Positions 19,950 to 28,436 of a stretch of DNA of 64,000 nt are shown one piece after another. The translations under genes were made by a program, and so were the position numbers. The stretch is from contig NC_090325.1 of NCBI RefSeq assembly GCF_035084215.1, positions 119,722,001-119,786,000 on the forward strand. Reading direction: 5' to 3'. The notes under the pieces were generated by a model, which saw only the letters and a list, made by a program, of their open reading frames with translations, had not been told where the DNA came from and ran no database searches. The stretch is from Heptranchias perlo (lineage: Eukaryota). Position 1 is the first letter of the stretch, and each line of letters starts with the position of its first letter.

Positions 19950-20741
19950 TGTTAGACTATGCCATTGTGTACTAAAAATGTAACAAGTTTAAAATAATTG
20001 TTTTATGCAAGTTATGTAATTGTAAAATGCATTTAATATGTAACTACATTTACTCAGTATATTAACCAAACGATTAAGTAGTTAACTTGGACAATGTGTG
20101 TTTTAAACCCCACAGTTAATACTTTGTTTAAGTTTCATAAATATAAAAGAATCTAGCATATCTGGAAAAAGGCAAGCTACATTCCCCAAAAGAGATAAGG
20201 GGAACACCAAGTGTCTTGCCATTGTCTAGAACACGTTACAGTTATCAGCCTAATCTTTTCAACAAGTTGATGAGATTAAGTCTGGCCTCCTCAACAAGTT
20301 GATGAGGTTAAGTCAGCATGTCACATGATCCTCAGCTACAGTGCATAAATATACAGTTCGAACAAAGGTTCACAGTAGATGAACCCCCGAGGACACAGAC
20401 TAGATTTGTCCGGGCGGACATACACGCTGGTAGGTGCTTAATGCCTGTGTAGTCTGAAGAAGTCTACAGAAAGTAGGATTCGCAGGATCCAAGGGGTGGG
20501 GGCTGAGAGGACCACGAGAGGCGAGAGGCCAACGCTCAAGCTCTACCCAATGTGGAAGCAGCTAATGTATCTCCAGTTTCCATTCTGTAAGCTGCTGCTT
20601 AAATTCTAAGTGTATTATACTCTTCTTTGCAATAAAATACTTGCCACTGTAGCCATTTGGTGTCAACTCGAATCTTTCAGAGCTGGGAATTAAGTAGCGG
20701 AGCCAGGGCTCCCTAAGAGGTCATAGACTGTATTCCCAACA
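19950..20741 (+). mobile_element. 5' LTR of endogenous retrovirus-like element (792 bp)
   Basis: Starts TGTT, ends AACA; its first ~390 bp are repeated at 25984-26336 and 28397-28432; AATAAA near 20631; internal 32-bp direct repeat; followed by a PBS. Confidence 0.92.
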
Positions 20742-20744
20742 AAT

Positions 20745-20766
20745 TGGCGAGTCAGGCAGGAGTCGA
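20745..20766 (+). other. Primer-binding site, tRNA-Arg(ACG)
   Basis: TGGCGAGTCAGGCAGGAGTCGA matches 20/22 to TGGCGAGCCAGCCAGGAGTCGA, the complement of the vertebrate tRNA-Arg(ACG) 3' end; 3 nt after the LTR. Confidence 0.88.
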
Positions 20767-20901
20767 CAAACGATGGTTTATAGTTCTTTGTTGTTAATGA
20801 CAGGCTTAGGAATCTTTCACCTAGCTAGTGCAGAGTCTAAGTAGGAAACTGAAAGGGTGTGTGAGTGACGGCTGTTACTCACCAGTAGTATTAGTGCCGA
20901 G

Positions 20902-21347
20902 ATGGCGGACATCACCCCAGAAGGCCAGAAGGCGTGACATGCCTTGAGAAATTGTTGGATCAGGGAAAATTCAAGTTGCAGCAGCAGCTTGTGGTATTCC
21001 TGGCAGGCCCCAATGGGAGATTGTATGGGCAGGCCATTGAGTGGATACAGAAACAAGCAGATGAGAAGAAATGTAACAAAAATGAGGGAAAACACCTGTT
21101 AATCTAGGCCTCACATTTCTGCGCCCAGAAAGGCGACAAACTTGCGAATAAGGCGGAGAAGGAAATAGAGCAAGTTCAGGAGAATGGTAAGAAAATAGAA
21201 CAGGAGAGAGCCAAGGATAAGGAGGAGGCTCAACATAAAATAGCGTGCCTGCCTGCCCTGTTTAGCCACCCAATTATAGGCAGGAGTGGCTACTGCAGCT
21301 GCCCAGGAGATAGGAGCACAACAAATGAAGGAAACACCCAAGTTTAA
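20902..21347 (+). pseudogene. gag-like N-terminal remnant (coiled-coil rich)
   Basis: Kozak gccgagATGG. Removing an 8-nt duplication (CAGAAGGC) gives MADITPEGVTCLEKLLDQGKFKLQQQLVVFLAGPNGRLYGQAIEWIQKQADEKK..KHLLI*ASHFCAQKGDKLANKAEKEIEQVQENGKKIEQERAKDKEEAQHKIACL. Assigned by position; no motif homology confirmed. Confidence 0.55.
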
Positions 21348-24759: not shown

Positions 24760-25944
24760 AGTAAAAATAGAATAATTGAATCAGCACATTTAAAACTTCA
24801 ACATTTTAACGGCACTCAGGTCAATCATCAGATAAAGAATAAGAGCAGAAATTACCTTGATCCTTTTGTTGTTTTTAAGAACTAAAAATGAAAATGGTCC
24901 CATCTCTTGTGGTGACATCACACTGCCATTATGCCTGACCCTAAACCCAGGACCTGTAAATAGTCTTGTGACTTTTGAAACTGGTGAACAATTGTACAAC
25001 GATATGTTGCATTCTTGATCTTTCAATGATACGTCTACCCAATGGTTTTGTTTTACCAACAGATACTGTCCGTAATGGTTAAACCATTATTAGAAAGGAA
25101 CAACTGCTCTCAAAGGCAATTACGTATGAAGGTTCTTTTTGTTTACTTAAATCAGATCCAAAAAGGGGGTTAAATGGTATTAGTAAAGAAATGGATCCCA
25201 AATTTTATTTTTTTTAAAATCTGGAAATCACATGAGAATATGGTTTGGTGTAAAGTGCAAAGACGCCGGTAAGTGTGTTATGCCAGGAAGATGCAAACAA
25301 AATGATGTTATTTCAAGGTGGGTTCCTGCAACAGTGGCAATGTCATCACTATCTGCAGATGAAAGACTGATTGAAGTTGACTTGATAGACTTTTTGGAGG
25401 ATGATATACACGAGGAGTTTGTGAACTATCTAAGGACATTGGTTAGTGGGGATGAGGGAATCTGGAAAGCCCCAGATACATTTTGCTGGTCAAGGAATAG
25501 CTATTCAGCTGTGAAGTGCTGCTGAGCTCATGGTTAGCAGGTGGCTTCACCTTGGATGAAGAATCTCCTAGCTGCTCTCTACAGGTCAATCGATGGAACT
25601 CAGAGAACTAACATGGCAAATTCAAAGAGAGGAGGATATGGAGTTACACCATATATCTGGTTTGTCAATCAACATTTTGCCTTACACCAACCAAAAATGA
25701 CTAAATTGGGATAAAATATTGGTGCCTGTTAGGCCCCACAATGTTACGAAAAACATATTACCCTTCAGACAGACGCCTTATAAGCAGTTGTAAATTTTGC
25801 CCATTCCATTCCACACATTTTCTTGAGGCTTAAATAGTTGTATTAATTGTTTTAGTTATTATGGTATGTTGGCTTAAGAGTGTAGCGCGATGGTTGTCAT
25901 GGCACATGTATAATCATGAAGTAACAGCATTAATCAAGAAGTGA
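24760..25944 (+). pseudogene. env-like remnant
   Basis: Broken frames rich in Cys and N-x-S/T sites (HFNGTQV, NKS, ISCGDITLPLCL, FNDTSTQWFCFTNRYC), ORF 25232-25525, and a hydrophobic TM-like run IVVLIVLVIMVCW plus short tail ending at 25944, just before the PPT. Confidence 0.5.
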
Positions 25945-25972
25945 GGACATAAGACTATGGTCTGTCGGCCTC

Positions 25973-26336
25973 AAGGTGGGGACTGCTAGACTATGCCGTT
26001 GTGTACTAAAAATGTAACAAGTATAAAAGAATTGTTTTATGCAATATATGTAATTGTAAAATGCATTTAATATGTAACTGCATTTACTCAGTATATTAAC
26101 CAAACAATTTAATAGTTAGCTTGGACAATGTGTGTTTAAACCCTACAATTAATAATTTGTTTAAGTTTCATAAATATAAAAGAATCTAGCATGTTTGGAA
26201 AAAGACAAGCTACATTCCCCAAAAGAGATAAGGGGAGCACCAAGTGTCTTGCCATTGTCTAGAACACGTTACTGTTATCAGCCTATTCTTTTCAACAAGT
26301 TGATGAGATTAAGTGCGGCCTCCTCAACAAATTGAT
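25973..26336 (+). mobile_element. Polypurine tract (aaggtggggac) and 3' LTR first part (from 25984)
   Basis: tgctagactatgcc.. aligns to 19950 onward with ~23 substitutions and 1 indel in ~355 bp (hand count). Cut by CR1 at ~26337; a further LTR piece at 28397-28432. Confidence 0.9.
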
Positions 26337-28397
26337 GCGGCATAGAAGATAAGAGCAGGGAGGTTATGCTAGAACTGTATAAAACACTAGTTAGGCCACA
26401 GCTTGAGTACTGTGTACAGTTCTGGTCACCACATTACAGGAAAGATGTGATTACACTTGAGAGGGTACAGAGGAGATTTATGAGGATGTTGCCTGGATTG
26501 GAGAATTTTAGCTATGAGAAAAGATTGGATAGGCTGGGGTTGTTTTCTCTGGAACAGAGGAGGCTGAGGGGAGATTTAATTGAGGTAAATAAAATTATGA
26601 AACATAGAAACATAGAAAATAGGATCAAGAGTAGGTCATTCAGCCCTTTGGGTCTGCTCCGCCATTCAAAATGATCATGGCTGATCTTCTAACTCAGTAC
26701 CCTGTTCCTGCTTTTTCCCCATATCCCTTGATCCCTTTAGCATTAAGAAATATATCTATCTCCTTCTTGAATACATCTAATGACTTGGCCTCCACGGTCT
26801 TCTGTGGTAGATAATTCCACAGGTTCACCACTCTCTGAGTGAAGAAATTTCTCCTCATCTCGGTTCTAAATGGCATACCCCGTATCCTGAGACTGTGACC
26901 CCTGTTTCTGGACTCCCCAGCCATCGGGAACATCCTCCCTGCATCTATTCTGTCTAGTCCTGTTAGAATTTATATGTTTCCATGAAAGCACCTCTCATTC
27001 TTTTAAACTCTAGTGAACATAGGCCAAGTCGACCCAATCTCTCCTCATCCGTCAGTCCTGCCATCTCAGGAATCAGCCTGGTAAACCTTCGTTGCACTCC
27101 CTCCATGACAAGGACATCCTTCCTCAGATAAAGGAGACCAAAACTGCACACAATACTCCAGGTGTGGTCTCACCAAGGCCCTGTATAACTGCAGTAAGAC
27201 ATCCCTGCTCCTGTACTCAAATCCTCTTGCAATGAAGGCCAACATACCATTGAATGCTCGCTTTCAGTGACTGGTGTACAAGGACACCCAGGTCTCGTTC
27301 CACCTCCCCCTTTTTCCAATCTATCACCATTCAGATAATAATCTGCCTTTCTGTTTTTACAACCAAAGTGGATAACCTCACATTTATCCATGTTATACTG
27401 CATCTGCTATGTTCTTGCCCACTCACCCAACTTGTCTAAATCACATTAGAGCCTCTTTGCATCCTTCTCACAGCTCACATTCTACCCCAGCTTTGTGTCA
27501 TCTGCAAACTTGGAAATGTTACATTTAGTTCCCTCATCCAAATCATTGATATATATTGTGAATAGCTGGGGCCCAAGCACTGATCCCTGCGGTACCCCAC
27601 TAGTCACTGCCTGCCACCCGGAGAAAGACCAGTTTATTCCTACTCTCTGTTTCCTGTCTGTCAACCAATTCTCAATCCATGCCAGTATATTCCCCCCAAT
27701 CCCATGTGCTTTAATTTTGCACACTAACCTCTTGTGTGGGACCTTATCTAAAGCCTTCTGAAAATCCAAATACACCACATCCACTGGTTCTCCCCTATCT
27801 ATTCTACTAGTTACATCCTCAAAAAACTCCAGTAGATTTGTTAAGCATGATTTCCCTTTCATAAACCCATGCTGACTTTATCCAATCCCGTTAATGCCCT
27901 CCAAGTGTTCCGTTGTCACATATTTTATAATAGACTCTAGCATTTTCCTCACTACTGATGTCAGGCTAACTGGTCTGTAATTCCATGTTTTTTCTCTCCC
28001 TCCTTTTTTAAATAGTGAGGCTGAGGGGTGATTTAATTGAGGTATATAAAATTATGAGGGGCCTAGATAGAGTAGATAGGAAGGATCTATTTCCCTTAGC
28101 AGAGAGGTCAATAACCAGGGGGCATAGATTTAAAGTAATTGGTAGAAGGATTAGAGGGGAGCTGAGGAAATTTTTTTTCACCCAGAGGGTTGTAGGGATC
28201 TGGAACTCACTGCCTGAAAGGGTGGTAGAGGCAGAAACCCTCATCGCGTTTAAAAGGTGCTTGGATGTGCACTTGAAGTGCCGCAACCTGCAGGGCTACG
28301 GACCAAGGCTGGATGGCTCTTTTTTGGCCGGCACAGACACGATGAGCCGAGTGGCCTCTTTCTATGCTGTAAATTTCTATGATTCTATGATTCTATG
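26337..28397 (+). mobile_element. CR1 3' fragment inserted in the 3' LTR, split by an inverted CR1
   Basis: [20 protein letters not shown] (26366-26600) resumes at 28017 RLRGDLIEVYKIMRGLD and ends in an (ATTCTATG)n tail. Confidence 0.88.
26601..28016 (-). mobile_element. CR1 LINE (different subfamily), 5'-truncated
   Basis: [46 protein letters not shown]; (TTTCTATG)n tail at 26601-26620. Confidence 0.92.
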
Positions 28398-28436
28398 ATT
28401 AAGTCAGCATGCCATATGATCCTCAGCTACAGGCAT

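Follow-up and report, generated by a model that had tools for sequence, protein, structure and literature searches.

Endogenous retroviruses (ERVs) that resemble snakehead retrovirus (SnRV) are already in print for chondrichthyans (PMC4422223, PMC6001957), among them an SnRV-clustering lineage reported in the elephant shark (Han 2015, PMC4422223), and the broad lineage (SnRV-like, clade Huo) is thus already described in a chimaera. Clade Huo, or class III, comprises ERVs outside classes I and II in all vertebrate groups (Xu et al. 2018, PMC6001957), and the Ovex1-like elements of birds and turtles are counted among it (PMC2717909). The DNA analyzed here, referred to as the window, is a stretch of 64,000 nucleotides from the shark Heptranchias perlo (NC_090325.1, positions 119,722,001 to 119,786,000; G000:C1:119722001-119786000 in the 3.25-Gb source genome, G000) that contains a provirus at 19950-28432. 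This provirus is real but defunct, a non-autonomous copy within a basal group of SnRV-like shark ERVs. The explanation that we consider probable is that it is an internally deleted copy, likely spread by the proteins of intact relatives, and that the envelope gene (env) of such a relative, at a locus designated L071, has likely been kept as a host gene.

CmiERV lineage I of the elephant shark, which is reported to cluster with SnRV, is like the shark group in being chondrichthyan and in having a long terminal repeat (LTR) that starts with TGTTAG (PMC4422223); by eye, its reverse transcriptase (RT) and integrase (IN) motifs resemble those of L118, a pol-bearing relative of the window provirus, and its Gag begins with a coiled coil. 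It differs in its primer-binding site (PBS), TGGCGTAGTC, in having kept pol, and in an env that by eye is of gamma type with an immunosuppressive domain. SnRV itself shares with the shark group an Arg PBS, a coiled-coil Gag with a CCHC knuckle, and a homologous env, and its RT is the nearest exogenous one among those fetched, but its env is longer (1134 versus 759 residues, 13% identical), it has 3' accessory frames, and it is not a direct sister. Within clade Huo/class III, the nearest kin are pol proteins from coelacanth, frog, or unnamed sources, which are 52-57% identical to those of the shark relatives. ERV3 and ERV4 have a 5-bp target-site duplication (TSD) and no knuckle in the tabulation of PMC4299795 (Table 1), as opposed to a 4-bp TSD and a zinc knuckle in the shark group, and membership in ERV3/ERV-L or ERV4 is contradicted by these two characters, the knuckle being that of a relative.

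The window provirus consists of the following parts, given in window positions with the strand where one applies.

19950-20741 (+): 5' LTR, TGTTAG..CCAACA, with AATAAA at 20631
20745-20766 (+): PBS for tRNA-Arg(ACG), 20 of 22 bases identical to the 3' end of a tRNA-Arg(ACG) gene of the same genome
20895-21344 (+): gag remnant, a broken N-terminal part, coiled-coil like, with 30-48% matches to other loci of the genome
21345-22777 (+): internal stretch, rich in AT and without matches to pol or env, about 70% identical in parts to other repeat families
22778-23168 (+): integrase remnant from the end of the zinc-binding domain to LQIDYIG, the remaining core deleted; recognized by motifs and sister copies
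23169-24749: two younger insertions foreign to the provirus; 23168 abuts 24750 in sister copies L011, L012, and L015
24926-25880 (+): env remnant, Cys-rich, with a hydrophobic, anchor-like end; located by tblastn with the L071 env and stepwise mapping through related loci
25972-25983 (+): polypurine tract, worn, read from the sequence
25984-26338 (+): first part of the 3' LTR, 92-94% identical to the 5' LTR
26339-28398: nested long interspersed element (LINE) pieces in both orientations within the 3' LTR; recognized by LINE-type frames and repeats, absent from L011, L012, and L015
28399-28432 (+): final remaining 34 nucleotides of the 3' LTR, matching 20308-20341; the other ∼400 nucleotides and the right TSD are gone

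A preliminary description made from the letters of the window had proposed a single provirus over 19950-28432, and its LTR pair of TGTT..AACA form, its PBS, its polypurine tract, and its gag-like coiled-coil frames are all confirmed at the positions listed, whereas 23169-24749 and 26339-28398 are later insertions rather than parts of the provirus. The former is recognized as such because 23168 joins 24750 directly in the three sister copies; it is likely a piece of a Harbinger-type DNA transposon together with a repeat resembling a short interspersed element, class names that we infer from sequence, and a Myb/SANT match within it is weak (E 0.07). The LINE pieces of the latter we take to be CR1-like. 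Without the insertions, the internal part amounts to 3,661 bases. The integrase piece had been described as WWP-CxxC-LQIDYIG; the motifs are present, but within 22950-23110 only WWP and LQIDYIG share one frame, and CLVC lies in another. Of the Cys- and N-glycan-rich region with a transmembrane end, the cysteines and the hydrophobic end stand, but there are just 1-2 sequons per frame. No capsid or nucleocapsid part was recognized in the gag remnant. Both flanks of the provirus are LINE-like, and the TSD of this copy is unreadable, its right end being lost. The two LTRs differ by about 7% (Kimura two-parameter distance 0.071 over 355 nucleotides), which with the shark substitution rates in use (0.5e-9, PMC10699275; 2.2e-10, PMC4422223) would place the insertion at roughly 70-160 million years, both rates being assumed.

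That the provirus belongs to a non-autonomous family, a point that the preliminary description had missed, is indicated by its sister copies. The LTR and leader retrieved 276 candidates from the genome, 40 of which were scored, and queries with internal parts retrieved 474 and 429. Sister copies are ∼80-88% identical to the window provirus, and identical deletion joins recur among family copies; other copies carry a larger deletion, in which 22924 is joined to 25076. Protease, RT, and RNase H were missing from the window provirus and from all 15 sister stretches scanned with the pol profile (16 of 16 copies). The integrase piece was the only pol match, in 3 of the 15 sister stretches (L015, L012, and L011, profile positions 870-919, E 2e-7 to 2e-4), and the same positions gave no match in the window provirus itself. 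Among solo LTRs, 20 stretches were fetched and 9 that lacked one end were left out; a 4-bp TSD was exact in 6 of the remaining 11 and within one mismatch in 9. Since the copies have no enzymes and yet have spread, help in trans is suggested, and the family is likely a multicopy, internally deleted derivative that spread with helper proteins. In the proposed mechanism, an RNA of about 4.5 kb would have been packaged, reverse-transcribed from tRNA-Arg, and integrated through the Gag and Pol of pol-bearing relatives, the gag and env remnants being carried along as dead sequence. The non-coding stretch 22211-22761 is about 70% identical to parts of many other repeats, several of which lie beside env pieces (L023-L028, L036, L114, L116, L120); it may hold a common signal that acts in cis, for packaging or otherwise.

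Pol-bearing relatives are connected to the window by two routes. A further family differs in its LTR and has a PBS of Arg type and a broken pol (L029-L034, L038-L041, L045, L050-L054); its env DNA is ∼80% identical to the window env remnant, and 7 of 14 fetched loci that match the window gag remnant carry pol pieces. The open pieces of these relatives contain the Pfam domains RVP, RVT_1, a tether-like RNase H, Integrase_H2C2, rve, and zf-CCHC, the last in the Gag of L048 (E 1.6e-8). Reference RT sequences were taken from viral contigs and comprised SnRV (L087, identified because its RT is the one that the PMC7947760 supplement gives for SnRV), 16 foamy records, and walleye viruses; RT matches below 150-200 aligned residues were left out. 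In all three trees built, of which the one with 83 rows was made by a quick method, the RTs of the shark relatives fall inside Retroviridae, apart from gypsy elements and from proteins with lokiretrovirus motifs (99/98 against each in the careful tree), and closest to coelacanth and frog ERVs, with L044 joined to a coelacanth ERV at 100/99. The RT of the relatives, together with the presence of env, thus supports a retroviral rather than a Ty3/gypsy identity for the group, and the ordinary Ty3/gypsy grouping that had been named as contradicting the preliminary description was not seen. A further locus, L118 (G000:C30:18788500-18798400), is a two-LTR provirus with LTRs 90% identical, a gag start like that of the window, an Arg PBS, and a full but broken pol; its 3' frame has no match to the F-type env profile described below, and therefore env types differ within the shark group.

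The preliminary description had suggested a basal lineage that was either SnRV-like or lokiretrovirus-like, and possibly an undescribed family. Likeness to SnRV holds for the primer (16 of 18 PBS bases are identical, in agreement with the Arg primer that had been pointed out), for the Gag layout, and for env, but a strict sister-group relationship between SnRV and the L044 group does not (approximately unbiased (AU) test, p 0.039, a modest value). No name was found for the relatives, but SnRV-like chondrichthyan ERVs have been published, as noted above. That the family is a shark lokiretrovirus is very improbable: the shark env has RxKR, a fusion peptide, a coiled coil, and a predicted F-like fold, as described for lokiretroviruses (PMC7947760), and the relatives carry a tether-like domain after RT, both in its favor, but the F-like env is common to lokiretroviruses and foamy viruses and hence not diagnostic, lokiretroviral RT and IN read CPFGY and DWIGP in the PMC7947760 supplement as opposed to LPQGF and DY[IT]GP in the shark relatives, and the loki-motif proteins branch outside the shark group. 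The lokiretrovirus reading was rejected on these motifs and on the AU test (p 0.028, with two loki-motif proteins as stand-ins). Lokiretroviruses are further marked by an integrase that groups with CGIN1 and, in some cases, by an smc gene. The screen by Wang and Han covered five chondrichthyan genomes, and chondrichthyans are not among the host classes given in that account (PMC7947760); the host range so described is unchanged by the present result. Membership in class I (gamma/epsilon) was likewise rejected (AU p 0.030), and no retroviral env Pfam family matched any of the 27 env relatives scanned.

A stronger, though still improbable, alternative would place the family among the true foamy-like ERVs (clade Tu) that cartilaginous fish carry. 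Foamy Pol is the best solved-structure match of the relatives' RT, foamy sequences give the best tblastn scores for IN, the env profile matches foamy env, and the AU test does not reject joining the L044 group with foamy viruses (p 0.24). However, the relatives' RT is nearer to SnRV (39%, 162 bits) than to foamy viruses (32-37%, 108-134 bits), the end of env lies close to the purine tract and leaves no room for accessory genes after env, and the primer is Arg as opposed to the Lys or Asn given for foamy viruses and fish foamy-like ERVs (PMC5512871). The CCHC knuckle in the Gag of L048 also counts against it. Foamy Gag is not known to carry a Cys-His box. It should be recognized that several points weigh against our placement in a basal, SnRV-like group served by helpers. 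The search with the LTR and PBS that had been proposed for finding fuller copies retrieved family copies, but no pol-bearing copy with the LTR of the window was found in the genome searches, in which fetched stretches were at most 10 kb, so that elements may be cut. The window provirus has no RT, so it is placed through its relatives only, to which it is linked by env DNA and a weak gag match; the deep RT branch order is unsettled, with foamy viruses moving between trees; the trees were built without rows for ERV-L, class II, fish foamy-like ERVs, or CmiERV; and the AU tests used 24 rows and 283 columns, with four tests uncorrected, so that p values of 0.03-0.04 are modest.

The env of the parent virus can be judged from relatives rather than from the window, in which it is gutted, another feature that had been missed. 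A genome search with the env piece of a relative gave 1,045 candidates, of which 150 matches were scored, and one contained an open frame of 780 codons (L071:3195-5534, minus strand; 759 codons from ATG). Its product has a likely signal peptide, RKRR, and a stretch like a fusion peptide, then a long helix that is followed by a Cys-rich head, and finally another helix before the anchor. Onto the window, residues 196-223 map to 24926-25006 and residues ∼378-650 to 25095-25834, with the hydrophobic end directly after (best tblastn E 2e-6, at 25510-25599), so the remnant is without the cleavage site, the fusion peptide, and both heptad repeats. These losses take out just the fusion machinery and leave the head and the anchor, a form that is found in two LTR families, and the shortened env might on this account be a working, fusion-dead surface protein under selection. 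We regard this as quite unlikely, considering that no single open phase runs through the 25 copies compared, that stops are shared, and that family-diagnostic changes are divided 12/12/12 by column phase, without codon-position bias; frame shifts blur the column-phase test, and this counts against our view of the remnant as dead sequence.

By prediction, the complete env belongs to the paramyxovirus-F/foamy type, and it fits subclass Ib of the fusion proteins as defined in PMC11468914. A profile of 41 env sequences aligned to SnRV env by hhalign with 94.8% probability (E 5e-8); the env profile also matched SnRV and foamy env at E 2-3e-5, foamy weakly. A structure model with a predicted local distance difference test score (pLDDT) of 65 matched the F proteins of respiratory syncytial virus and human parainfluenza virus 3 (E 2e-9 to 7e-9, template modeling (TM) score 0.35-0.38), henipavirus F being included at E up to 2e-8, and among predicted viral structures it matched F-like proteins, walleye-virus env, and foamy env; F proteins were also the top matches in the ESM Atlas. 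The lokiretrovirus and foamy Env and the F proteins of paramyxo- and pneumoviruses are like the shark env in predicted fold and in how the cleavage site, the fusion peptide, the heptad repeats, and the Cys-rich head succeed one another (PMC7947760, PMC11468914). The shark env has no significant sequence match to PF00523 or PDB chains, however, and the pol that goes with it is of a lineage other than that of the lokiretroviruses. Several results detract from the fold assignment: phmmer searches of Pfam (including PF00523) and PDB with the intact L071 env gave nothing significant, the env profile found only weak henipavirus F matches in PDB (E 2.4-3.5), the first model, made from 4 sequences, was poor (pLDDT 27), and the predicted TM score of the second was 0.46. 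A four-sequence env profile gave 1% against SnRV env, a search of viral contigs with P0038 gave no match, and the PF00523 profile gave none over the whole genome, where the controls were silent too, so that this search is uninformative. At E <0.001, 43 relatives belong to the env family, and those with a name come from frogs, sharks, and a skate. Proteins of this family that are annotated in other sharks and in a skate, env-like and with open frames (P0177, P0179, P0180, P0183, P0200), are 24-29% identical to that of L071, and more than one env may have been retained. Multi-copy env frames in Mantella (P0176 cluster, 16 members) and Discoglossus (P0203 cluster, 32 members) suggest recently active relatives in these frogs. 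At G000:C13:24.55-24.70 Mb (L055-L057), about 20 env-remnant matches, some near-identical, lie within 160 kb, in what looks like tandem or segmental amplification.

The intact frame at L071 (G000:C6:50325194-50327533, minus strand) is likely an old co-opted gene. Its product has 87% identity to a protein of Scyliorhinus torazame, 85% to one of Chiloscyllium punctatum, and 91% to one of Heterodontus francisci, three species that represent as many orders. The accessions of the set are GCC29952.1, XP_067889054.1, and XP_072333160.1. The pol region of L071 is full of stops, and at synonymous sites the divergence of L071 from its family amounts to 8.5%; it is on these two grounds that we consider the locus old. 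All 18 paralogues fetched from the same genome have stops or frameshifts, and the ratio of nonsynonymous to synonymous changes (pN/pS) is 0.21 in L071 versus 0.76 in the paralogues (Fisher p 1.4e-6), which at the level of sequence comparison shows purifying selection. The reference for this ratio was the commonest paralogue codon by column; codons with <6 paralogues or without a 60% majority were left out, and 636 of 759 codons were used. Of 25 derived residues of L071, 6 are common to all three named shark proteins and 7 are its own, a pattern that suits one locus predating the divergence of these sharks. At L071:5473-5475, just ahead of the ATG, a run of pyrimidines and AG form a putative splice acceptor, and contigs from two runs of another organism (∼95%) cover most of the frame and end at that point, which hints at a spliced env mRNA, the runs being guessed to be RNA although none with a match is recorded as such. 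Coverage of env is slight in run X7, and that of pol is patchy in every run, neither of which speaks for or against expression. By prediction, cell entry of the parent virus relied on a fusion protein that was cleaved by furin and was of the paramyxovirus-F/foamy type. At L071, this env has remained open under purifying selection as its pol decayed, and the protein, likely made from spliced mRNA, would serve on the surface of the cell, either as a fusogen or to block a receptor.

The contrary view, that intact env genes of the L071 kind arose through separate, recent insertions by a virus that moved among sharks and do not go back to one co-opted locus, is unlikely but has more weight than the other alternatives discussed. 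Related open env frames are multi-copy in frogs, and the comparison included no flanking DNA from the named sharks; against this, the dead pol and the synonymous divergence indicate an old locus, and its frame stayed open while 18 of 18 sisters broke and shares derived residues with all three named proteins. Some observations tell against co-option as we describe it. The LTR remnants of L071 differ by just 0.068 over 199 nucleotides, which is low for a very old locus, synteny was not observed, the shared residues could also come from a viral subfamily, and the two runs are RNA by guess only and both come from one study. On balance we lean slightly toward a single capture of the F/foamy-type env of the window lineage before the three galeomorph orders split, still expressed as a spliced host gene. 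These orders separated ∼200 million years or more ago.

Syncytins, percomORF, and the shark syncytin-like candidates resemble L071 in that an open env, which is conserved between species, accompanies a pol that has decayed. The shark syncytin-like screen used syncytin queries and required an immunosuppressive domain and a CX6-7C motif, and as described it selects gamma-type env (bioRxiv 10.64898/2026.05.06.723177); the L071 env differs from those candidates in having no such Pfam match and in its occurrence in three named orders, not one genus. Sharks have many independent origins of live birth, and this type of env is invisible to syncytin-based screens. No paper on this env was found in the literature searched, outside which lay surveys of co-option and of cartilaginous-fish foamy elements, so that its novelty is provisional. 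If the single capture is true, which is a little better than an even prospect, the gene would rank with the oldest co-opted env genes, and in cartilaginous fish it would be the first of non-gamma type that our searches could find; the open, conserved shark env is in any case a testable candidate for a very old viral-to-host gene. The presence of an F-like env, homologous to SnRV env, in a pol lineage that would be the third after those of foamy viruses and lokiretroviruses supports the view that the F-type fusion protein is old and widespread in basal retroviruses. The window element alone is a routine dead provirus that marks a large, apparently unnamed basal shark ERV group.

Elsewhere in the window, 37000-46000 is GC-rich (up to 55%), unlike the remaining sequence. 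At L016, a family copy is adjoined on the minus strand (7339-8022) by a frame that is presumably chemokine-receptor-like.

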